From an uncultured Acidobacteriota bacterium (GTDB lineage: Bacteria; Acidobacteriota; Terriglobia; Acidiferrales; UBA7541): a DNA stretch of 64,000 bases. This document shows positions 1 through 57,913 of the stretch, one piece after another. The stretch covers positions 156,360-220,359 of the forward strand of contig CAWAVH010000018.1 of the NCBI GenBank assembly GCA_963785395.1, given 5' to 3'. How positions within the stretch are numbered: position 1 is the first letter of the stretch; the number at the start of each line of letters is the position of its first letter. The position numbers and the translations under genes are program-made. The notes below the pieces were generated by a model. It was given only the letters and a program-made list of their open reading frames with translations. It did not search any database and was not told the origin of the DNA.

Positions 1-695
1 AGAATTCGCAAACGTGTCGTCGATTTTGCTGATCACGTTGCCGCATCGTCAGGATTATTCAGCCGCACGATGTACCAGCCCGCCGCATTTTTGTAAAACT
101 CGCAGCCGCGATGCTTTCGTTCAAATAATCGTAGTGAAACCAGAATTGCGAAGTGTCGTCCGCTTTTCGCGAGCCTGTATAAATTCCATCGATATTGAAT
201 TGCCAGTTGCCCAACGTAAATCGCGCCCTTAATCGGGACGCGGTCGCCCACTTTCCATCCAAACCGCTTCGCTGTGCCTTCGCCGACGATCGCGCCCTCG
301 CCGGTCATTTTCAAAAGTTTTCCATTGTCGTCGGGCACGTTGAATTCGCTGTACATCTGCCGCCAGCGTGGTCACGATCAATCGCGAACTGCGGAAAGAA
401 ATTCTTCTCGTCCTGATAAATTCCGCCGAACCAAGTGGAGTGTGTCATCTGCTTGATTCCCGGAGTTCTCGCCAGTTGCATCCATGTATGCGATCGGCAG
501 CGGCTGAATGAACGAAATTTGTTCATCACGATCAGTCGGTCGGCGCCCGCGACTTCCACTCCCTGATTGAACGCAAGCTGCACATCGCACAGCAGCCCAA
601 ACAAAAACATCGCCACCGCAAACGAACCGATCGTCAGCGCACGTGCGGAATTTCTTCCGCAGCAAACTCACTCTCAGCAATCGCAAATATTTCAT
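1..695 (-). CDS. ABC transporter permease, FtsX/MacB(DevC)-type; 3' end beyond window; frame broken at least 3 times as assembled
   Basis: ATG at 695 (MKYLRLLRVSLLRKKFRT, in frame of ORF 378..1322) continues in ORF 311..616 (AMFLFGLLCDVQLAFNQGVEVAGADRLIVMNK...THSTWFGGIYQDEKNFFPQFAIDRD), ORF 33..356 (GEGAIVGEGTAKRFGWKVGDRVPIKGAIY) and ORF 59..262 (NWQFNIDGIYTG...FWFHYDYLNE). This gives an N-terminal TM helix plus a MacB-type periplasmic domain. It is the third gene of a HlyD-ATPase-permease operon. Confidence 0.75.
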
Positions 696-6780: not shown

Positions 6781-7077
6781 TTACTGAGCTTTTCCTTTTT
6801 CGCGCTGATATGCTTCGCGGCCCGCGTCCACCGCCGCCGAAATCGATTCGCGCTGGCGCGACGCCACATCTTTTCCGCGTTCAATCAAATCGTCCGCGCG
6901 CTCGCGCAGTTCGCGCGCTTTGCGCTGCGCAAAGTCTTTCCCCTCGTCCGCTTTCTTCGAAAGAAATTCGCGCGTTTCTTCGCCCGATTTCGGCGCGAAC
7001 AGAATCCCGATCAGCGCGCCAATCCCCAGGCCAACCATAAAATAACTGACTTTGCTTCCAATATTGCTCTCACCCAT
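6781..7077 (-). CDS. YtxH domain-containing protein
   Basis: MGESNIGSKVSYFMVGLGIGALIGILFAPKSGEETREFL is the typical YtxH TM plus APKSG motif. ATG at 7077 is preceded by GAGGT. The ORF track extends to 7149, but the upstream part lacks an RBS. Confidence 0.75.
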   Translation of the reverse strand: MGESNIGSKVSYFMVGLGIGALIGILFAPKSGEETREFLSKKADEGKDFAQRKARELRERADDLIERGKDVASRQRESISAAVDAGREAYQREKGKAQ

Positions 7078-16049: not shown

Positions 16050-17172
16050 ATGTCTGATCTAAAAATTCTCCAAAAGACGCAGAACCTGCACCCCGCTCAG
16101 TGGTGGGAGCCGATGGGTGATGGCCGCGTGCATTGTTATTTGTGTCCGCGGCACTGCCACATTGGAGAAGGGCAGGCCGGCTTTTGTTTTATTCGCGTGA
16201 ATCAGGGCGGCGCGCTTTACAGTCTTGGATATGCGTCGCCTGCCGCGATGCAAATCGATCCGATCGAAAAAAAACCGCTGAACCATTTTCTGCCGGGCAC
16301 ACGAGTGTTTTCGATGGGCACGGCCGGTTGCAACATGGGCTGCTTTTTCTGCCAGAACTGGGACATTTCCAAATCGCACGCCGATCAAGTGCGTTCGCAA
16401 TACGTGCCTGCCGAAGATGTGGTGGCGCTGGCGATCGAACACGATTGCAAATCGATCGCATTCACTTACAACGAGCCGACGATTTGGGGCGAATACGTAA
16501 TCGATATTTGCCACGCAGCGCGCGAGCAGGGCATCGCGACGGTGATGGTGAGCAACGGATACATCACGCGCGAAGCGTTCCACGATATTTACGATCACGT
16601 GGACGCGGCGAACATCGATTTGAAAGCGTTCTCCGAAGATTTCTACGGACGAATCACGCTGACACATTTGAAGCCCGTGCTCGACATGCTCGAGTGGCTG
16701 AAAAATGAAACGAACGTTTGGTTCGAGCTGACAAATTTAATTATTCCAACGCTCAACGACGGCGCGCGCGAGTTTCACGAGCTGAGCGAATGGGTGCTCG
16801 AACATCTCGGTCCCGATGTGCCGCTGCATTTCACGGCGTTTCATCCCGATTTCAAATTGCGCGATAAGCCGCCCGACTCCGCCGGAAACATTGCACGCTG
16901 CGCGGCGCATCGCGCTCGACACTGGACTGCATTACGTCTACGAAGGAAATATTCATCACGGCGCCGGCGAGACGATTTGCCCGAAGTGCGGGGCAATCCT
17001 CATTCGGCGATCGTGGCATAGCGTGATGCAAAATCGTTTGCATCAGGGCGCATGTTTCTCTTGCGGCACCGCCATTTCGGGACGATGGACGATACCGGGC
17101 GTGACCGATTCGGTTGCGAACCGGCGCGACCCTGCGCGGGTTGCTCGGAAGTATGAGACGTTGAATCTGTAA
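16050..17172 (+). CDS. AmmeMemoRadiSam system radical SAM enzyme (AmrS-like); one apparent frameshift ~16875
   Basis: HCYLCPRHCHIGEGQAGFC (N-terminal Cys cluster), the radical SAM CX3CX2C motif GCNMGCFFCQNW and NEPTIWGEY are in ORF 16050..17021. The C-terminus (HAARRIALDTGLHYVYEGNI...CPKCG...) is in ORF 16816..17172. Confidence 0.85.
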
Positions 17173-17220
17173 GTGATCGAGCTTGTGCTTCCAATTCCGG
17201 AAATGGGAATGTGCTAGTTG

Positions 17221-17297
17221 GATGATTTCTCTCGCCCCCCACCCCCCCTCGAAAACACCTGTTTTTTGGCTAAGTGTTGAATCTACGGGAGTTGCGG
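17221..17297 (-). repeat. Degenerate half-copy of the G6-N-G6 promoter-linked element
   Basis: The minus strand reads ...AACTCCCGTAGATTC...GAGGGGGGGTGGGGGGCGAGAGAAATCATCC, matching the 3' part of the 56118..56198 copy (AACTCCTGTAGAATC...GAGGGGGGTGGGGGGCTTGCTGATGATCGC) with an internal insertion. Confidence 0.6.
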
Positions 17298-17396
17298 TAA
17301 TTTCGCGACAGCAAAAAGGCCCTTTGCCTTCAGCCTTCGCCGGGTGTGCAGCTGCGGCCAAGGAATCCTATTCGTTCTAGTCTGAGATTCGGGATA

Positions 17397-17479
17397 CCCC
17401 CCTCCCCCCTGTTTTTGCGTAACTGCAGATTCTAAAGGAGTTAGCTAGTACTACTCCCGTATCTACAGATATAGTTAGA
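17397..17479 (-). repeat. Conserved ~83-nt non-coding module (copy 1): DR-hairpin-DR-G6AG6
   Basis: The reverse complement aligns with 56118..56198 with 7 mismatches over about 83 nt. It contains ATCTGTAGATACG / ATCTGCAGTTACG repeats flanking GGAGT-N11-ACTCC and ends in GGGGGGAGGGGGG. Confidence 0.85.
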
Positions 17480-17525
17480 GTTAAGGCCGAATTAGGGGGC
17501 CGAGTACTATCGAAAGAGGTGCGCC

Positions 17526-17559
17526 CCAAAAGCAAAACCCGCGCTGGTGGGCGCGGGTT
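17526..17559 (-). terminator. Rho-independent terminator-like hairpin about 15-45 nt downstream of the predicted promoter
   Basis: 9-bp stem AACCCGCGC/GCGCGGGTT with loop CCACCA (minus-strand sense), followed by TTGCTTTTGGGG on the minus strand. Confidence 0.6.
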
Positions 17560-17578
17560 GGTATAACTCTCCACCAAC

Positions 17579-17607
17579 ATTATCTCATGTCAAGCAAATC
17601 ATGTCAA
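17579..17607 (-). promoter_or_regulatory. Consensus-like sigma70 promoter TTGACA-N17-GATAAT (minus strand)
   Basis: The minus strand reads CTCATTATTTCTCTTGACAtgatttgcttgacatgaGATAATgttggtggag. It has the same hexamers, spacing and similar flanks as the promoter at 55969..55997. No CDS lies downstream on this strand. Confidence 0.6.
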
Positions 17608-17714
17608 GAGAAATAATGAGAAATATGCAGATAACTCGGTGACTTATAGGAGAGCCCGTGGGCGATGAGCCTACGACGGGACGAACTCCAGGAGAATTGG
17701 TTCGATTAGCGATG

Positions 17715-17740
17715 GAAAAAAGGGCGGGCCAAGCCCGCCC
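17715..17740 (-). terminator. Rho-independent terminator of 17754..18209
   Basis: GGGCGGGC/GCCCGCCC stem 14 nt after the stop codon, followed on the minus strand by TTTTTT. Confidence 0.8.
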
Positions 17741-17753
17741 GTAAAGCGGTGTG

Positions 17754-18209
17754 CTAGCGTTTGCGGCTTGCGCGGCGCACGGTCTTGCGCGCTTTGCGTG
17801 CGGTTTTCTTGGCGGAGCGAGTGGTGCGGCGAACAGATTTTCGAGCGGTTTTCGCCGCAGAACGCACAGACTTGCTTACTGCCTTCGCAGTCTTGCGAAC
17901 CTTTTTTGCGGAGCTTCGAGCTGACTTCTCCGTTTTACGAACTGAGCGAGTGACTTTGCGCGCAGCATTTCTGCCTGCGCGAATCAGTTTTTCGGCGTCA
18001 TGTTTTGCAGTGGTGGTTCTGGCGGCGATTTTGCCCATGGCGGAGCCGGTCTTTTCGCCGATGGTCTCCATCGTGTCGCTGATGGTTTCCATTGTGGAGC
18101 CGGTTTTTGCGGCGATCGTACCAAGCGTTGAGCCAATCGATTCCGCGACGCTAACCAGGAGATCGTGTTCTTTGTCGGGCGCATGGTTCTTATGATCGTG
18201 AGAGGCCAT
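17754..18209 (-). CDS. Hypothetical repeat-built basic protein (Gly/Thr/Ser 11-mer-like repeats N-terminal, Lys/Arg-rich repeats C-terminal)
   Basis: 151-aa ORF. It reads SIGSTLGTIAAKTGSTMETISDTMETIGEKTGSAMGKIAA, then RKVTRSVRKTEKSARSSAKKVRKTAKAVSKSVRSAAKTARKSVRRTTRSAKKTARKARKTVRRASRKR. It has its own terminator. Confidence 0.7.
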   Translation of the reverse strand: MASHDHKNHAPDKEHDLLVSVAESIGSTLGTIAAKTGSTMETISDTMETIGEKTGSAMGKIAARTTTAKHDAEKLIRAGRNAARKVTRSVRKTEKSARSSAKKVRKTAKAVSKSVRSAAKTARKSVRRTTRSAKKTARKARKTVRRASRKR

Positions 18210-18315
18210 TTGGTTGCTCCTTCGAAATTATTTCGCAGAATCGAGCGAGTGACACCATCTCGTACAGGAGAATCATTGAACCACAGAATTTGTTTTGCGC
18301 AACGCCAATTCGAAG

Positions 18316-18585
18316 TTAAACCTTTTTCGCGTCGCGATAAGCCTCTTCGCCGGCGTCGATCGCGTCGGTTACGCGGTCTTTTGCCAGCTCCACGAGTTTT
18401 TGCGCGCGCTTTTGCACCTGTTTACCCGTCGCGCGGGCTTCATCGAGCAGGTCGTTCGCACCGTCAGCGATATCGCCGCGAAGCCGTGCGCCGGATTTCG
18501 GAGCGAGGAGTAGCGCAGCGCCGACCCCGATGCCCAAACCTGCGAGGAAAATACCAATTTTTCCGGACACGTTATCTCTCGTCAT
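18316..18585 (-). CDS. YtxH domain-containing protein
   Basis: MTRDNVSGKIGIFLAGLGIGVGAALLLAPKSGARLRGDI is the YtxH motif. ATG at 18585 is preceded by GGAG. The ORF track alternative start is 18630. Confidence 0.78.
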   Translation of the reverse strand: MTRDNVSGKIGIFLAGLGIGVGAALLLAPKSGARLRGDIADGANDLLDEARATGKQVQKRAQKLVELAKDRVTDAIDAGEEAYRDAKKV

Positions 18586-18695
18586 CTCGGATCTCCAATC
18601 ATTCAACCAGTTATTTGAGTCGGTAGGCATGGTATTGGTGACAGCAAAGGGGGAGGAACTCCGAAATGGAGTTCCTCCCGCCTCGAATCACTAAA

Positions 18696-19277
18696 TTACA
18701 GTGTGCCCCCAGCAGCTCTACGAGCGACATCTGTATCCGACTTCGGCGTGTCAGTTGCCGCTTCGCCGGTAGATGAAACGTCTTCTGCGCCAGTACGCTG
18801 CAACACATCCTTCGCGCGCTTGATCTCCTCGGAAGTATCGCAATGCACGGAAAGAAGAATTCCGCCCTTTTGCAGACGGCCTTCGTAGCGCTTTGCCTCG
18901 AATTCGGGAATTCCCACGCCGATCAGCGCGCCAGTGACTCCGCCAACCGCTCCGCCGACTCCGAGTCCTGCAAGCCCCGCCATGATTGGACCAGCCGCGA
19001 TGAAGGGTCCCAAGCCGGGAATCGCGAGCAGTCCAACGCCCGCCAGAACGCCAAGTGTGCCGCCGATTACGCCACCGGCAGTGACGCCTGCAGCGGTGCC
19101 TTCAGGAGCTTTCGTGGTCTTTTCGGTGCCCATATCTTTGGGACCGTCGAGACTTTCAGGCAATAGAACCGAAACGTCGGCGGTGGGGAAGCCGGCTTTG
19201 ACGAGAGAATCCACGGCATTCTCTACGGAGCTTCGGGTGGAATAGATTCCAAAAACTGCCACTTTTTTTCCTGACAT
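18696..19277 (-). CDS. General-stress-type protein with central glycine-zipper membrane segment
   Basis: 193-aa ORF. The N-terminal domain is KKVAVFGIYSTRSSVENAVDSLVKAGFPTADVSVL. The Gly-rich hydrophobic core is GVTAGGVIGGTLGVLAGVGLLAIPGLGPFIAAGPIMAGLAGLGVGGAVGG. The C-terminus is FEAKRYEGRLQKGGILLSVHCDTSEEIKRAKDVL. The functional name is uncertain. Confidence 0.7.
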   Translation of the reverse strand: MSGKKVAVFGIYSTRSSVENAVDSLVKAGFPTADVSVLLPESLDGPKDMGTEKTTKAPEGTAAGVTAGGVIGGTLGVLAGVGLLAIPGLGPFIAAGPIMAGLAGLGVGGAVGGVTGALIGVGIPEFEAKRYEGRLQKGGILLSVHCDTSEEIKRAKDVLQRTGAEDVSSTGEAATDTPKSDTDVARRAAGGTL

Positions 19278-19331
19278 GTCTGAGTTCTCCTTTGAATTTA
19301 ACTGAATTAGGAATCGATCACGCGACAGAGA

Positions 19332-19889
19332 CTACGCTCGTGCTGACCTAGCTTTCTTGGGCTGCGATTTTTTTGAATTTTTGCCTTCTTCGGATTCGCC
19401 CGAGTTCGCGGCAACCACGTTGATGTCACCGGCCAGCTCCGTCAACTTCTCGTCGGTGGCTTTCTCCTCTTTCAAAGTTTCTTCGAGCAGCGAAACGGCT
19501 TCACTTTCACCGAGAAGCTCGGCGTAGGTGCGGACGCAGCCGTAGCCGGCGATTTCGTAATGCTCGACGCGTTGGGCGGCGGAGATGAGACCCGCGTCCA
19601 ACTCCTCCGGCGCGGGATCTTCTTCGATCATTTCTGCGCCTTCCTTGATGAGGCCTTCCATTCCTTTGCAGGTCTTGCCCTTGGGACTTTCACCGAGGCC
19701 TTTGAAAATTTGTTCGAGCCGCGACACGTGGCCCTTGGTTTGTTCGAGATGCTCTTCGAAGCCGGTACGCAAGTCGGCCGACGTGGAAGCCTTTGCCATT
19801 TTTGGCAAGGCTTTTACGAGCTGGTTTTCTGCGCTGTAAAGATCTTTCAATTCTTCGATGTACAGGTGCTTCAAGCGATTCGCTTCCAT
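19332..19889 (-). CDS. Ferritin-like DUF892 (YciE/YciF family) protein
   Basis: LYIEELKDLYSAENQLVKALPKMAKA...HLEQTKGHVSRLEQIF...QRVEHYEIAGYG is the typical YciE/YciF four-helix-bundle signature. Confidence 0.85.
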   Translation of the reverse strand: MEANRLKHLYIEELKDLYSAENQLVKALPKMAKASTSADLRTGFEEHLEQTKGHVSRLEQIFKGLGESPKGKTCKGMEGLIKEGAEMIEEDPAPEELDAGLISAAQRVEHYEIAGYGCVRTYAELLGESEAVSLLEETLKEEKATDEKLTELAGDINVVAANSGESEEGKNSKKSQPKKARSARA

Positions 19890-20080
19890 TGGCTCTCCTC
19901 TTCAACGATCCGAATTTTTTCGAGCTGATCTGCAACTTACTCGGGAGGCTCCGTGTGAGAGCGCTCCGACGGCGGGAAACTGCTGCCTCTACAGTAGACA
20001 GCTATCCGCAACGAGATGCCATACGGGGAAGGGCGTAAAAACGAACAAGTGAAACGTGCAACGTGAGGCGCGAGATCAAA

Positions 20081-21919
20081 CTACTTCGTGGTGGGAACAA
20101 CTTGCCCCGCGGTGAAGGCAACGTGCTGAAGCACCTGTGGCAAAGTGGTGAAGAATCCGTGAGATTTTTGCAGATTGAGCCGGCTTGCTGTTTTTTGTAT
20201 GTCTCCCTCGAAATTCCAAAGGCAAATCAGGATTTGCAAATGGGGGGACTGAGTACGAAGTTTTGCGTAGAGAGCGCGAGCATGGTTCACCGCGAACGGC
20301 GGCAACGCCGAGATGCAAACGATATCAGGATGCAATTCCTTTACCTGAGCCAACATTTCCGCGGTTGTGCCGAGTGGAATGCTTTCAGCGGTGTGGCCCT
20401 GGCGTTCGAGAAGGCGGGCAAGCAGGGTGCCAATTACGTCGTCCGCGTCGTCGCGCGCTGGGATGCACACGACGTTGAGATGATTCGAGTCCTCGTCCGC
20501 GCGGCCCAAGGGTGGCGCAGATTCGCCCTCCTCGCTCTCCTTTTCTACGCCGGGATCGTCACCAATCTCCTCGATAATTTCGCGAGTGCTCTGATAAATG
20601 AAATTTTGCGTTTCCTCGTCCAGATCGTTCCTATGGCGGTCCTGCTCGGCGAGACCAAGCGCGGGAATTACCACCAAGCCGTAAAGATCTTCCATCGATT
20701 TGTCTTTCAAATATTGCTCGAGGACGTGTTTGGCTTCGTTCTGGTCCGTCGCGAGAAGGCGTTGGTAATACTGAGCTTCTGGCGGGAGAACAGGTTCGTC
20801 TCCGAAAAGTACATTGAGAAAGCTGAGGCTCGGAATGTAGCGCCCCATCACCACGAGGCAAACCGTGAGAGGCGTGGAAAGTACGAGTCCCGGAAAGCCC
20901 CAGATCAGCGTCCAGAATATGGCGGCGACTAGAATCGCGAGCGGCGCAAGTCCCAGATGTGAGCCATACAGAAGCGGTTCGACAGCATTCGCAATAACGA
21001 TCTCCAAGACGGCGAAGAGTCCCACGGTTGCAATGGCGTGCTGCCATCCCGGAAAAACCGCCAGCGACAAAATGATGGGCATGAGCGCGGCGATCGGCGT
21101 GCCAACGTAGGGCAGAAAACGAAGCACGGCGGCGCTCACTCCCCACAGCGAGGCATTCGGAACTCCGATGAAGTGCAAGCCCGCAAAGATGAGCAGACCG
21201 AAGGCGGAATTTACCGCGAATTGAAGGAGCAAATATCGATTGATTCGCTGGGTAGCTTCGTCGAACGCTTGAGTCATCAACTTCAAACGGCCGCCGCCCG
21301 CCAGTCGAATCATTCGATTGCGCAAGTCTTCGCGGCCTACAAGGATAAACACGGTGAAGATAACCACGATACCCGCGGTGCCCAGCGGGCCGAGAATATT
21401 TTCGGCGGATTCGAGTGGGTTAACAGGTGGCACTACTTCCACGGCTAGAGGCCGCGATGGAGAGGATCCCGCAGCCGGCGTCGGGGCTTTTCGAGAGCCA
21501 TTTGCAGCCAGCGTTCCTGGAGTGGCGTCGTCGATTTCTTTCGCCAACTCCTTGACGGTATCGGAGGCCTTGTCGAGGCTTTGGCTTCTTCCGCTTTTCA
21601 CGGTTTGAATTTTCTGCGCAAGCGTTTGCTTATAAGAGGGCAGTTGGCTTGTTAAATCCACGAGTTGATGTGAAGTTTGCCAGACCATCAGGCCAACTAA
21701 AGCCATGGGGACCAGGATCACAATAAAGACAGCGAGTATTCGGGGGAGTTTGATTCTTTCGAGAGAGCTTACCGCGGGTGTGAGCAGAAGCGCGAAAAGC
21801 GCGGCGAGCGCCAGGGGCACAAAAACAATTCGAGCGAAATAGAGAGCGGCAACAACCACCACGGCTGCAACGACGCCCAGGAGTTTCGAGTTCTCGCTGG
21901 ACGCCGACGCTCGCTTCAA
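20081..21919 (-). CDS. AI-2E (PerM/YhhT) family transporter fused to a C-terminal B12-binding-like (flavodoxin-type) domain
   Basis: Intact 612-aa ORF. The multi-TM AI-2E core includes RINRYLLLQFAVNSAFGLL, RFLPYVGTPIAA and EPLLYGSHLGLAPLAILVAAIFWTLIWGFPGLVLSTPLT. The roughly 130-aa cytoplasmic tail VVCIPARDDADDVIGTLLARLLERQGHTAESIPLGTTAEMLAQVKELHPDIVCISAL resembles the cobalamin-binding domain pattern but lacks the DxHxxG histidine. Confidence 0.8.
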   Translation of the reverse strand: MKRASASSENSKLLGVVAAVVVVAALYFARIVFVPLALAALFALLLTPAVSSLERIKLPRILAVFIVILVPMALVGLMVWQTSHQLVDLTSQLPSYKQTLAQKIQTVKSGRSQSLDKASDTVKELAKEIDDATPGTLAANGSRKAPTPAAGSSPSRPLAVEVVPPVNPLESAENILGPLGTAGIVVIFTVFILVGREDLRNRMIRLAGGGRLKLMTQAFDEATQRINRYLLLQFAVNSAFGLLIFAGLHFIGVPNASLWGVSAAVLRFLPYVGTPIAALMPIILSLAVFPGWQHAIATVGLFAVLEIVIANAVEPLLYGSHLGLAPLAILVAAIFWTLIWGFPGLVLSTPLTVCLVVMGRYIPSLSFLNVLFGDEPVLPPEAQYYQRLLATDQNEAKHVLEQYLKDKSMEDLYGLVVIPALGLAEQDRHRNDLDEETQNFIYQSTREIIEEIGDDPGVEKESEEGESAPPLGRADEDSNHLNVVCIPARDDADDVIGTLLARLLERQGHTAESIPLGTTAEMLAQVKELHPDIVCISALPPFAVNHARALYAKLRTQSPHLQILICLWNFEGDIQKTASRLNLQKSHGFFTTLPQVLQHVAFTAGQVVPTTK

Positions 21920-33540: not shown

Positions 33541-33574
33541 ACAACCCCTCCCTCCCCCGGAGGGGTTGTTTTTG
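33541..33574 (+). terminator. Rho-independent terminator of the pirin gene
   Basis: 11-bp perfect stem ACAACCCCTCC/GGAGGGGTTGT with a 7-nt C-rich loop, followed by TTTT. Confidence 0.8.
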
Positions 33575-33668
33575 TATAGTGATGATTCTAATAGAGTTAC
33601 CTAGTACTATTACTAAAAACTTATTCATTCTAAAGGAGTTAGGTCTGTTTTTGAGGTGTTTTTTGGCG
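33575..33668 (-). repeat. Degenerate copy of the promoter-linked element (no promoter recognisable)
   Basis: GATTCTAATAGAGTTACCTAGTACTATTAC and ATTCTAAAGGAGTTAGG resemble ATTCTAAAGGAGTTAGCTAGTACTACTCC of 17430-17458. GAGGTGTTTTTTGGCG resembles ACACCTGTTTTTTGGC at 17265-17280. The C-rich tract is recruited into the adjacent terminator. Confidence 0.5.
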
Positions 33669-33921: not shown

Positions 33922-33956
33922 GAAAAGAAAAAGCCCGAACCTTTTGGGGTTCGGGC
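33922..33956 (-). terminator. Rho-independent terminator downstream of tRNA-Phe
   Basis: 9-bp stem GCCCGAACC/GGTTCGGGC, followed on the minus strand by TTTTTCTTTTC. Confidence 0.7.
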
Positions 33957-34041
33957 GCGGAGATGCTCCGTTTATTAGTATGCCATGAGGTATAACGGGA
34001 GTCAAGGGCAACGCTGGAGAAGCATGGTCCGCGATTTGGAA

Positions 34042-34116
34042 TGGTGCCGGGGGGCAGAATCGAACTGCCGACGCCAGCCTTTTCAGGGCTGCGCTCTACC
34101 AGTGAGCTACCCCGGC
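34042..34116 (-). tRNA. tRNA-Phe: tRNA-Phe (anticodon GAA), CCA encoded
   Basis: The minus strand reads GCCGGGGTAGCTCACTGGTAGAGCGCAGCCCTGAAAAGGCTGGCGTCGGCAGTTCGATTCTGCCCCCCGGCACCA. It has a 7-bp acceptor stem, anticodon stem CAGCC/GGCTG with loop CTGAAAA, and T-arm GGCAG-TTCGATT-CTGCC. Confidence 0.95.
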
Positions 34117-55968: not shown

Positions 55969-55997
55969 TTGACAACTGTTTCGGTTTTTGAGATAAT
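55969..55997 (+). promoter_or_regulatory. Consensus-like sigma70 promoter TTGACA-N17-GATAAT (plus strand)
   Basis: CTCATTTTATATTTAGTTCTTGACAactgtttcggtttttgaGATAATgcacatggag. It has an AT-rich upstream flank and is homologous to the promoter at 17579..17607. It lies 370 nt upstream of the dipeptidase ATG. Confidence 0.6.
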
Positions 55998-56117
55998 GCA
56001 CATGGAGAATTTCCTTCAAAATTCACGGTCGCAGGGCTTGTTGTCGCGCAGAACTGCGCTCGAATAGTTCCAAAACGGAAAAAGAGGCTATCAGGGGGCT
56101 CCGATGCCACGTAAGTC

Positions 56118-56198
56118 TAGCTATATCTGCAGTTACGGGAGTAGTACTAGCTAACTCCTGTAGAATCTGCAGTTACGCGAAAAGAGGGGGGTGGGGGG
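56118..56198 (+). repeat. Conserved ~83-nt non-coding module (copy 2): DR-hairpin-DR-G6TG6
   Basis: CTAGCTATATCTGCAGTTACGGGAGTAGTACTAGCTAACTCCTGTAGAATCTGCAGTTACGCGAAAAGAGGGGGGTGGGGGG. It contains two exact ATCTGCAGTTACG repeats and has 7 mismatches to the reverse complement of 17397..17479. Confidence 0.85.
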
Positions 56199-56366
56199 CT
56201 TGCTGATGATCGCTTCAGAATCCGAACGGCAACTTTTGAGCACGACGTTGGCTGGGCCGTCCAGCTCAAAACCGGCAGGCCGGCCCAATTGCGCCGCAAC
56301 ACTTGAGGCAACACCCATTTCTTTCGTCCTTAACTCTCGGAAAGGCTTTAAGGTATTCTCACTCGC

Positions 56367-57913
56367 ATGAAAATTGTGACCGCGGTTGCTGCCGGCCTGC
56401 TCCTCGCCGCCATGCTTCCGGGACCTGCTATGACTGACGACATCGCCGACCGCGCGCACAAAATTCATTTCAGCTCGATCGTGGTGGATACCCACGACGA
56501 TACGCCGCAGCGATTTTTCTTCGAGAATTTCGATCTCGGTCATCACGACCCGCATGGGCAGCATCGATATTCCGCGAATGCGCGAAGGCGGCCTCGGCGC
56601 GATATTTTTCTCGATCTGGTGTCCTGCAACTTTGACGGGCCCACCCGCCGTCCAGCGCGCTCTCGATTTGATCGATGGAGTTCGCGAGCAGGTGAACAAG
56701 CATTCGCAAGATTTAGTTCTCGCCACAACCGCGGACGAAATTCGCCGCGCGCACGAGCAGGGAAAGATCGCCATCCTCATCGGAGTTGAGGGCGGCTACA
56801 TGATCAACAACGATCTCGGCGTGCTCCGGCGAATTCGCCGCGCTCGGCGTGCGATATATGACGCTCACACACACCCTCGATATCGATTGGGCTGATTCGA
56901 GTACAGACGTGCCGAAGCACGATGGCCTCACTCCATTTGGCAAAGATGTAATTCGCGAAATGAATCGCCTCGGAATGATGGTGGATATTTCGCACGTCTC
57001 CGACAAAACTTTTTACGACGCGCTCGAAGTGAGCAAAGCTCCGCTCATCGCATCGCACTCATCGTGCCGCGCGATCAGCGGCGCTCCGCGCAACATGACA
57101 GACGACATGATCAAAGCCCTAGCTGCAAAGGGCGGCGTGATTCAAATTAATTATCACGTGAGCTTTCTAAGCGATGCGTATCGCACCGCCGCCGCAAAAA
57201 GCGATGAACTGAAGCAGCGCACCGCGGCCGCCGAAAAAATCGCAGGCACAAACGAAGCAGCCAGTGTTCGCGCCGATGATTCCGTCGCCCACCAAATGAT
57301 GGACGAAGGAAAACTTCCCAAAGTAAATTGGGAAGAAATTATGGATCACATCGATCACGCCGTAAAATTAGTCGGCGCAGATCACGTCGGCCTCGGCTCC
57401 GATTTTGATGGCGCCACAATGCCCATCGGCATGGAAGATGTCTCCAAAATTCCGCAACTCACCGAAGCCATGCTTCGCCGCGGCTACACCGAACAAGACA
57501 TTCGCAAAATTCTCGGCGGCAACACGCTCCGAGTTATGGCCGAGAACGAGCATGTCAGCCATGAACTTCAATCGGCCGAGCAAGGCACACTCCTTTCTAA
57601 AGAAGTTCCGAAAACCTCGCCCACGAATCCAAAGCCACAACCCCCTACATGCGCCTATTGTCCGCGTCCGGACTATTCGGAAGAAGCTAAGCACGCCAAG
57701 CTCGAAGGCGATGTGCTTCTGAGCGTCCTGGTTGGAATCGATGGCAAGGCTTTCGACATTGATGTGATCAGGGGCATGGGAATGGGCCTCGATGAAAAGG
57801 CTGTAGAGATCGTCAAAAAGTGGAAATTCAACCCTGGATTGGATAGTGACGGCAAGCCAATCAAGGCGCGAGTGCAGATAATTGTTTCGTTCCGACTTCT
57901 GGGACACGGTTGA
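56367..57913 (+). CDS. Membrane (M19, renal-type) dipeptidase fused to a C-terminal TonB_C-like domain; apparent frameshifts ~56550 and ~56835
   Basis: The signal peptide and IVVDTHDDTP are in ORF 56367..56789. IDIPRMREGGLGAIFFSIW...ILIGVEGG is in 56554..56895. MTLTH, MMVDISHVSD, LIASHSS, GLGSDFDG and the tail CPRPDYSEEAKHAKLEGDVLLSVLVGIDGKAFDIDVIRGMGMGLDEKAVEIVKKWKFNPG...VSFRL are in 56849..57913. Confidence 0.85.

Follow-up and report, generated by a model that had tools for sequence, protein, structure and literature searches.

The question raised by this locus is what kind of element is formed by two non-coding segments of nearly identical sequence, which are on opposite strands of a 64,000-nucleotide stretch of DNA from an uncultured Acidobacteriota bacterium (contig CAWAVH010000018.1; this whole stretch is referred to here as the window). 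A preliminary description had taken them for two copies of a promoter-linked module, possibly encoding a small RNA (sRNA) with conserved stems. The comparisons described here suggest, with a probability of about 0.62, that these copies (copies 1 and 2) and two more in the same window belong to one family of mosaic repeat cassettes, which are linked to promoters, locked in orientation and present in many Acidobacteriota. The cassette is constrained in its primary sequence and in its orientation, is predicted to be unstructured, is linked to a promoter, and varies in unit number and in presence. By its architecture, and not by homology, it falls into the known class of the bacterial interspersed mosaic repeats, being intergenic, multi-copy and modular, with a variable number of units; a literature search for the unit sequence found no prior description.

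Copies of the module in the window

Copies 1 and 2 form an inverted repeat of 87 nt, with 8 mismatches by direct count and with arms that are 91% complementary according to the repeat finder, and this is the longest repeat of the window. A direct count also agrees with the 83-nt alignment with 7 mismatches of the preliminary description. The window has 14 inverted 20-mer matches, compared with 0 shared 20-mers in shuffled windows; the G6-N-G6 motif (1 mismatch allowed) is found at 3 sites, giving 4 overlapping matches where 0.05 matches are expected, and ATCTGCAGTTACG (at most 2 mismatches) has 5 window matches, 4 of them within the two modules, against 1.08 expected. Beyond the 87-nt core, copies 1 and 2 are weakly homologous over about 35 nt upstream, from T(T)CGA(A)TAGT, and over about 50 nt downstream. 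The order within the module is unit 1, GGGAG, TAGTACTAGC, unit 2, AAAA and G6NG6. Two additional copies, overlooked previously, are a partial copy close to copy 1 and a diverged copy 3, which has the same module order and only a weak match (E=0.063) to the hidden Markov model (HMM) of the family unit. The window modules belong to a divergent subtype, having CTGCAG at the place of the consensus CCGCAC. The copies and their parts are as follows.

17397 to 17483, minus strand: module copy 1, from the repeat finder and the unit HMM (match at 17414-17443, E=2.7e-08)
17458 to 17470, minus strand: core of unit 1 of copy 1, ATCTGTAGATACG, followed by GGGAG and the TAGTACTAGC motif
17418 to 17430, minus strand: core of unit 2 of copy 1 (unit TAACTCCTTTAGAATCTGCAGTTACGCAAAAACA)
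17397 to 17409, minus strand: tail of copy 1, G6-A-G6
17345 to 17512, minus strand: extended cassette 1, about 170 nt with approximate boundaries, taken from the block missing from sister genome L022; its 5' start is the unit-like TTCGATAGTAC and its 3' end is about 55 nt beyond the G-run
about 17235 to 17300, minus strand: degenerate partial copy (3' half) with unit AACTCCCGTAGATTCAACACTTAGCCAAAAAACAGG, a 9-nt insert and a G7-T-G6 tail (HMM match, E=1e-4)
about 33545 to 33650, minus strand: diverged copy 3, with a unit, TAATAGTACTAGG, a second unit, an A-run and CCCCTCC/GGGGGAGGGAGGGG
56112 to 56198, plus strand: module copy 2 (unit HMM, E=9.5e-08)
56125 to 56137 and 56165 to 56177, plus strand: unit cores of copy 2
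56186 to 56198, plus strand: tail of copy 2, G6-T-G6
56068 to 56250, plus strand: extended cassette 2, with approximate boundaries from the weaker homology to the flanks of copy 1; its start, TCGAATAGTTCC, is directly 3' of the hairpin GCGCAGAACTGCGC

The first G-run of copy 1 (17403-17409) is G6 in the window and in contig L001, and G7 in the Joint Genome Institute (JGI) contig L002 (near position 6850); this length difference is homopolymer variation, due either to sequencing error or to slippage.

Distribution and anatomy of the family

The species-representative genomes were searched with a degenerate pattern, drawn from positions that agree among three copies (those near 17 kb and the one near 56 kb), and the JGI metagenomes were searched with a 19-mer of the consensus unit. 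The metagenome sample consists of the 120 contigs listed, which is a lower bound, and the cluster counts refer to these contigs together with the genome loci. In the genomes 39 loci are found, and genuine arrays are present in 27 metagenome-assembled genomes (MAGs), 25 of which are labelled Acidobacteriota, Terriglobia, Acidiferrales, Acidoferrum, Sulfotelmatobacter or Solibacter, and 2 Dormiibacterota. The other 12 of the 39 loci are from unrelated phyla and have no surrounding feature, their number being near the chance expectation. At least 120 JGI contigs, most apparently from soil projects, have the consensus 19-mer, and in the combined loci the unit HMM detects at least 153 clusters of 1-5 units, corresponding to about 137 flank-similarity contexts among the matches listed. 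Unseeded clusters are rare, only 3 in 582 kb, which suggests about 1 site per 190 kb, or tens per genome. The earlier suggestion that the module represents a family is borne out, this family being conserved in Acidobacteriota (25 labelled MAGs, and at least 120 metagenome contigs). The two typical three-unit arrays of L008 and L026 are both from the MAG Candidatus Dormiibacterota SMAG_U11514; either these are mis-binned acidobacterial contigs or the family extends outside the Acidobacteriota. A phage origin was considered and rejected, as there is one genuine array only in viral contigs.

Read from 5' to 3', the cassette often starts with a degenerate unit, followed by a near-consensus sigma-70 promoter, a leader of variable length (70-390 nt), the motif (A)CTAGC, 1-5 units, an A-run and a G-rich tract (GGGGGnGGGGG). 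Thus, the module of the window is a composite of a unit of about 30 nt (HMM consensus TAACTCCTTTAGAATCCGCACTTACGCAAA), the ACTAGC motif, the A-run and the G-rich tail. The units are arranged head-to-tail with a period of 39-40 nt, usually in 2-4 copies (range 1-5), and the order of the modules is constant across arrays. The unit has a near-invariant, asymmetric core of 16 nt, TA.AATCCGCACTT.C, and no internal palindrome was found when the family unit was inspected for one. In the metagenome sample about 98% of the units of a cluster have the same direction (6 of the 337 do not). A few units are inverted, and degenerate units are also found upstream of the -35 hexamer. The G-rich tail is present at 105 of 145 arrays among the matches listed; concerning a possible G-quadruplex, a G6-N-G6 tail allows only two tetrads, and some tails of the family have four G-tracts. 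No reading frame is kept across the family, which mixes periods of 39 and 40 nt and has indels from unit to unit, such that a coding function was rejected.

The consensus arrays are poor in G (C 31%, G 13%, compared with a background of C 29%, G 28%), and upstream of the tail an excess of C over G extends for 400 nt or more, the skew reversing at the tail itself; the window modules without their tails are not G-poor. The leaders are usually C-rich and G-poor, and about one quarter of them have a short hairpin terminator. In the leaders of L060, L081, L086, L066, L053, L010 and L036 there are runs of short repeats (a CAACTTT-type heptamer, CTCTG(T/C)G and CACT(C/A)GC), all G-poor on the transcribed strand, and their gain and loss alters the leader length at orthologous loci (92 compared with 345 nt). 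Just 3' of the G-rich tail the motif (T)GTTAT(T/G)GTTAAC(T/C)AG recurs, sometimes as the perfect palindrome TGGTTAACCA; it is seen in L008, L009, L026, L028, L030, L042, L055, L066, L074 and many three-unit arrays, and it is apparently the ACTAGC-type module which, in the window, comes before the units.

Several likenesses of the unit were considered. The predicted transcript start GUUCUUUGAU of one cassette type (L053, L063 and L068) may resemble the boxA of rRNA leaders, the NusB/NusE site, and the unit core CUCCUUUAGAA may resemble boxA or the 3' end of 16S rRNA, its TAnAAT being presumably like a -10 hexamer; the unit may also resemble the 3' third of a tRNA (T-loop, T-stem and acceptor strand). 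By eye, the unit does not fit an IHF site, DnaA box, sigma-54 promoter, extracytoplasmic function (ECF) sigma factor promoter, KOPS or Ter site.

Promoters and genes around the arrays

The preliminary description had reported a TTGACA-N17-GATAAT promoter some 100-120 nt upstream of each of copies 1 and 2, and both the promoters and these distances are confirmed.

17579 to 17607, minus strand: sigma-70-type promoter, TTGACA-17-TGaGATAAT, 11/12 consensus match with extended -10
55969 to 55997, plus strand: sigma-70-type promoter, TTGACA-17-TGaGATAAT, 11/12 consensus match with extended -10

These are the only two 11/12 matches on both strands of the window, and 10/12 is reached at six sites (in 128 kb). 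The linkage is a property of the whole family. When a promoter is defined as a sigma-70 match of at least 10/12, not more than 400 nt upstream of the array, a promoter reads into 66 of 142 clusters (46%), or 59 of 127 contexts, and none of 131 reads back from the far side, among the matches listed; for the 27 genome loci the numbers are 10 forward and 1 reverse. Most of these promoters are about 80-220 nt upstream of the first unit. The description of the repeated unit as promoter, variable spacer and conserved module, originally made for two copies, therefore holds as a general and highly asymmetric property of the family (66/142 compared with 0/131). It is also correct for the repeated entity itself, because the cassette type TTGACAgcgaccGTAATCATGTGGTAATAT-GTTCTTTGAT..., with 4 units and a tail, is found with at least 8 different upstream flanks and, in pairwise comparisons of this 4-unit type, homology runs from 10-35 nt upstream of the -35 hexamer through the tail. 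Of the 71 promoter-bearing cases, 17 (copy 1 among them) have a terminator-like hairpin separating the promoter from the array, compared with 6 in the reverse-strand control.

The genes downstream bear no relation to one another and include xseA, alaS, proS and genes for aldo/keto reductases, an ECF sigma factor, KpsF-like proteins and EVE-domain proteins. No recurrent flanking protein is found among the 149 flanking open reading frames (ORFs), which match 173 Pfam families. Genes were called only crudely in these loci; on this basis, 62 cases have a longest downstream ORF that is co-oriented with the array and 32 have a convergent one, and the corresponding numbers for promoter-bearing cassettes, counted per context, are 21 and 9. 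A riboswitch or gene-specific leader does not agree with downstream genes that are diverse and not always co-oriented (62 compared with 32). A type III toxin-antitoxin system does not agree either, as no ToxN/AbiQ/CptN-type toxin is found among 10 downstream proteins and the top 25 of the 173 families. On contig L059 an Acido-Lenti-1 RNA (RF01687, 51.8 bits; 146-191, minus strand) is located about 4.4 kb from the array, to which it is unrelated.

Conservation, turnover and mobility

At orthologous loci the arrays are 91-96% identical and the promoters 76-100% (mostly 84-100%), compared with 59-86% for the adjacent non-coding DNA (upstream, spacer and downstream), and at some positions, ahead of xseA and of alaS, the array has been kept from one species to another. 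At the same loci the spacer length differs by hundreds of bases, through large indels, and a single context can have different numbers of units (2, 3 or 4 units in one case, 1 or 3 in a second). In the sister genome MFD05521.bin.2.149, which is about 93-96% identical, the locus of copy 2 is intact. At the copy 1 locus of the same sister genome (L022), window positions 17341-17515 are replaced by about 40 unrelated nt, and the promoter and terminator of copy 1 and the partial copy at 17235-17300 are retained.

These properties bear on the alternative that survives best, in which the cassette is a selfish or neutral mosaic repeat, non-autonomous and without a host function, spread by an enzyme or by recombination and carrying its promoter along. 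The presence or absence of copy 1 in close relatives, the varying unit number at orthologous loci, the occurrence of one cassette type with at least 8 upstream flanks and the density of about 1 site per 190 kb all agree with such a repeat. This is also in agreement with the insertion elements that the arrays attract, and with the Acidobacteria-specific Y1 'TIRYT' transposases with associated repeat families that are on record, from a study of GTAG/CGTC repeats (PMC3733652). However, the marks of mobility are absent where they were looked for. The one polymorphic junction between L022 and the window has no terminal inverted repeats (TIRs) or inverted ends and no target-site duplication (TSD); the two limits of homology, one about 35 nt upstream of the -35 hexamer and the other at the G tail, lack the inverted relationship that would be expected of a miniature inverted-repeat transposable element (MITE) or of the ends of an insertion sequence (IS); and there are no inverted array pairs at kilobase distance in the 153 clusters listed (a sample of about 0.8 Mb). 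Nor is there a recurrent flanking protein, and the units are non-palindromic, unlike the repetitive extragenic palindromes (REPs); a REP or REPIN relationship fails for this reason and because no Y1 transposase is found among the top 25 of the 173 flanking families. The conservation of arrays and promoters above that of the neighbouring non-coding DNA, with the positions at xseA and alaS kept across species, also disagrees with a repeat without function, which is therefore considered unlikely.

It had been pointed out earlier that the copies would be IS-end fragments if they were always embedded in a transposase-bearing element. In the sample of about 0.8 Mb the arrays are not embedded in this way, and a fragment of this kind is excluded because the flanking genes are diverse and the nearby transposases are insertions into arrays. 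In L061 (3010-5110) and in L097 a 4-unit array is interrupted, at the same position in both contigs, by an IS1595-family element that has its own TIRs (CAGGATTAT..ACTTGACAAAAGT) and a duplication of 8 bp (CTTATAAC), and the apparent mobile element, with a transposase flanked by two arrays, is resolved in this way. The TIR-transposase-TIR appearance of L039 (1500-3070) results from insertions of an IS5-family and an IS3-family element, each with its own TIRs and TSDs, beside two head-to-head arrays. The arrays may be preferred targets of insertion sequences.

Tracts of 99-100% identity, kilobases long, are found within flanks of 85-98% identity when the window is compared with related contigs (17060-20359 with L001, 54919-56518 with L020), and this mosaic of identity suggests recent recombination between related genomes. 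The identity between the intergenic region of copy 1 and L001 (100%) and that between copy 2 and L020 (99%) were discarded as evidence for the element, because the tracts are kilobase-long and include genes.

Predicted structure of the transcribed cassette

If the cassette were the gene of a stand-alone, trans-acting sRNA, for example an unstructured multi-seed or sponge RNA with CUCCUUU motifs resembling an anti-Shine-Dalgarno sequence, then its features would be partly explained. Strong promoters read into the arrays, CUCCUUU is found in each unit, and about one third of the arrays, including copy 1, have no co-oriented downstream gene; as noted previously, copy 1 faces a convergent gene. 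It was also correctly described as non-coding and outside the known RNA families. With the gathering and E-value thresholds of Rfam 15, no match is obtained at the modules, the consensus arrays, the window element or 21 related loci.

The predicted structures do not support this possibility. RNAalifold gives 0 consensus pairs for 31 distinct three-unit arrays, and relative to dinucleotide shuffles these arrays have a median folding z of +0.5 alone and of +1.15 with flank and tail, 27 of the 31 values being positive; the values for the window modules, -1.3 and -1.7, are not significant. The pairings that had been proposed as conserved stems, the hairpin GGAGT-N11-ACTCC and CTGCAG with CTGCAG, are confined to the lineage of the window, and elsewhere ACTAGC with variable sequence and the non-palindromic CCGCAC are found at these places. 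Of the substitutions that distinguish copy 1 from copy 2, one leaves a G-U pair in place, two break pairs and none is compensated, and copy 2 of the sister genome has one further uncompensated substitution in the stem. The change from CTGCAG to CTGTAG does keep a G-U pair, as had been stated, but conserved stems are not supported.

The geometry of the locus also disagrees with an sRNA transcribed from the promoter at 17607. The promoter and the module of copy 1 are separated by an intrinsic terminator (stem 17559-17536 followed by TTTTGCTTTT), and L022 keeps this promoter and terminator without the module. No defined 3' end is apparent, since the tail of the arrays inspected is not followed by a U-run or terminator; about two thirds of the arrays are closely upstream of a co-oriented gene, and tens of loci per genome with a variable unit number would be unusual for an sRNA. 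The element is not a folded stand-alone sRNA gene, because it is conserved in sequence yet predicted to be unstructured as RNA, and even the version with an unstructured RNA has little to recommend it.

Possible mode of action

If it acts at all, the cassette would act via its primary sequence in the transcribed orientation. We tentatively favour, over the other modes of action, a single-stranded, sequence-specific platform on the nascent RNA or on the non-template strand. By recruiting a factor, the platform would control either whether transcription from the strong promoter reads through or what becomes of the transcript. In the most concrete version, the cassette would be a portable attenuator or backup terminator with loading of a Rho-type factor, spreading via duplication and recombination without a transposase of its own. 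Copies 1 and 3 are in line with this, as each has a terminator ahead of it and a convergent gene beyond it, and so are the consensus arrays, whose composition resembles that of Rho utilization (rut) sites. It is also possible, though doubtful, that the cassette is read on the nascent RNA or the non-template strand by a dedicated, sequence-specific factor, or by Rho/Nus via the boxA-like or -10-like core of the unit.

Several points weigh against this interpretation. The Rho-loading version fits the subtype of the window poorly, because the modules without tails are not G-poor. The promoters are predicted from consensus matches only, and their uniform orientation may reflect inheritance instead of selection, because whole cassettes share descent. 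The higher conservation of the arrays could result from gene conversion among copies. With about one third of the arrays convergent and about two thirds co-oriented with the downstream gene, the cassette is neither purely an element of 5' untranslated regions nor purely a terminator, and the survey of flanking genes of the loci did not find a trans-acting partner.

The arrays could instead be binding sites in duplex DNA, for a regulator, a nucleoid protein or a roadblock, around strong promoters. The nearly invariant, asymmetric 16-nt core, the fixed direct-repeat period of 39-40 bp, the degenerate units upstream of the -35 hexamer and the few inverted units can be accommodated in this way. 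However, a duplex site would not need strict co-orientation with transcription (66 compared with 0), a spacing of 39-40 bp is out of helical phase, the G-poor bias reaches well beyond the units and no candidate protein gene is linked to the arrays, such that this possibility is judged to be as poor as that of an sRNA. That copies 1 and 2, being inverted, with their G-runs outermost and their promoters reading outward, are the inverted terminal repeats of one mobile element of 38.8 kb (17397-56198) is scarcely credible and was rejected, as the interval has leuA/leuB-like genes, a tRNA-Phe gene, an AI-2E transporter gene and the third copy, as the sister genome without copy 1 has both flanks, and as no other locus has paired inverted arrays.

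Comparison with known repeat systems

In architecture the cassettes come closest to the BOX elements, the mycobacterial interspersed repetitive units (MIRUs), the bacterial interspersed mosaic elements (BIMEs) and the promoter-bearing Correia elements, together with 'promoter reuse'. The pneumococcal BOX elements, boxA-boxB(n)-boxC, are likewise modular and intergenic, with a head module, a variable number of tandem units of about 40-45 nt and a tail; they are likewise dispersed near unrelated genes, and they can affect the expression of their neighbours. However, BOX elements have stable predicted hairpins and MITE-like inverted ends, whereas the cassettes are predicted to be unstructured, lack TIRs and have a promoter in one orientation, and there is no sequence relation. 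MIRUs are likewise intergenic direct tandem repeats, of 40-100 bp, oriented with transcription and variable in copy number between strains, but they are inside operons and have short ORFs overlapping the flanking genes, whereas the cassettes have no reading frame, their own promoter and an end formed by an A-run and a G-run. In ToxI-type antitoxin arrays a promoter is likewise followed by tandem direct repeats, of about 34-48 nt; these repeats form pseudoknots and, as far as is known, invariably have a gene for a ToxN/AbiQ-type toxin after them, whereas the cassette arrays are predicted to be unstructured and have diverse housekeeping genes downstream.

Some BIMEs act as Rho-dependent attenuators. 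The Escherichia coli REP/BIME elements and the REPINs (PMC3733652; PMC8049555) are likewise extragenic, multi-copy mosaics of transcribed non-coding DNA and targets of insertion sequences, but REPs are palindromic, have a GTAG or CGTC head and are linked to REP-associated tyrosine transposases (RAYTs), whereas the cassette units are non-palindromic and lack a head of this type, and the top 25 of the 173 flanking families gave no link to RAYTs. The Correia elements of Neisseria and the cases of 'promoter reuse' or mobile promoters (PMC3575422; references listed in PMC11602168) are likewise repeated non-coding DNA providing strong promoters upstream of unrelated genes. Correia elements are TIR-bounded MITEs with TA duplications, whereas no TIR or TSD is seen for the cassettes and their promoter is 70-390 nt upstream of the array. 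The cassettes have no sequence relation to BOX, MIRU, BIME or Correia elements.

Short terminated RNAs and neighbouring genes

Three other features of the window are adjacent to the copies.

17526 to 17572, minus strand: short promoter-proximal RNA, predicted by folding, with a 5' hairpin (GGUGG...UACC), an intrinsic terminator and a U-run
33925 to 34010, minus strand: weaker promoter-like site (by eye, below 10/12), 5' hairpin and intrinsic terminator
56367 to 57913, plus strand: co-oriented gene downstream of copy 2, coding for an M19 membrane dipeptidase with a TonB_C domain

The RNA at 17526-17572 has a folding z of -3.0, with 0 of 200 shuffles folding equally well, and it is kept in L022, where the changes are limited to the loop of the terminator. 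The segment at 33925-34010 (z=-3.9) is downstream of the tRNA-Phe gene (34042-34116) and upstream of copy 3, in the same layout as at copy 1. Both 17526-17607 and 33925-34010, on the minus strand, would give RNAs of about 45-60 nt of one layout, a 5-bp, GGAG-containing 5' hairpin followed by a strong terminator, and the succession of promoter, short terminated RNA and array is also seen in L050, L071, L074, L101 and L106. From the predicted folds, these short terminated, promoter-proximal RNAs may be the true small RNAs, or the attenuators, of these loci.

The M19 dipeptidase is spread over three frames, implying two frameshifts: the signal-peptide-like N-terminus is at 56367-56789, and positions 36-129 and 132-318 of the Pfam family are in 56554-56895 and 56849-57913, respectively. 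The radical SAM (amrS-like) gene at 16050-17172 (plus strand) is in two frames (16050-17021 and 16816-17172), with one indel near 16760-16909; in the related contig L001 it is a single gene for 373 aa, and the split gene of the window is either a frameshift error or a pseudogene.

Implications

The Acidobacteriota are among the most abundant soil bacteria, and to our knowledge their non-coding genome is almost uncharted. The cassettes are also a trap for sRNA prediction, because sequence conservation 3' of a strong promoter mimics an sRNA gene. They carry the best consensus promoters of these loci and adjoin many unrelated genes, mostly housekeeping genes such as xseA, alaS and proS. Even if they are selfish, the cassettes are a source of strong promoters, targets of IS insertion and likely breakpoints in assemblies. 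If they modulate transcription, then they would be a major portable regulatory device in the phylum, and if a dedicated factor reads them, then this would be a new, phylum-specific layer of transcription control, movable between genes and present in tens of copies per genome.

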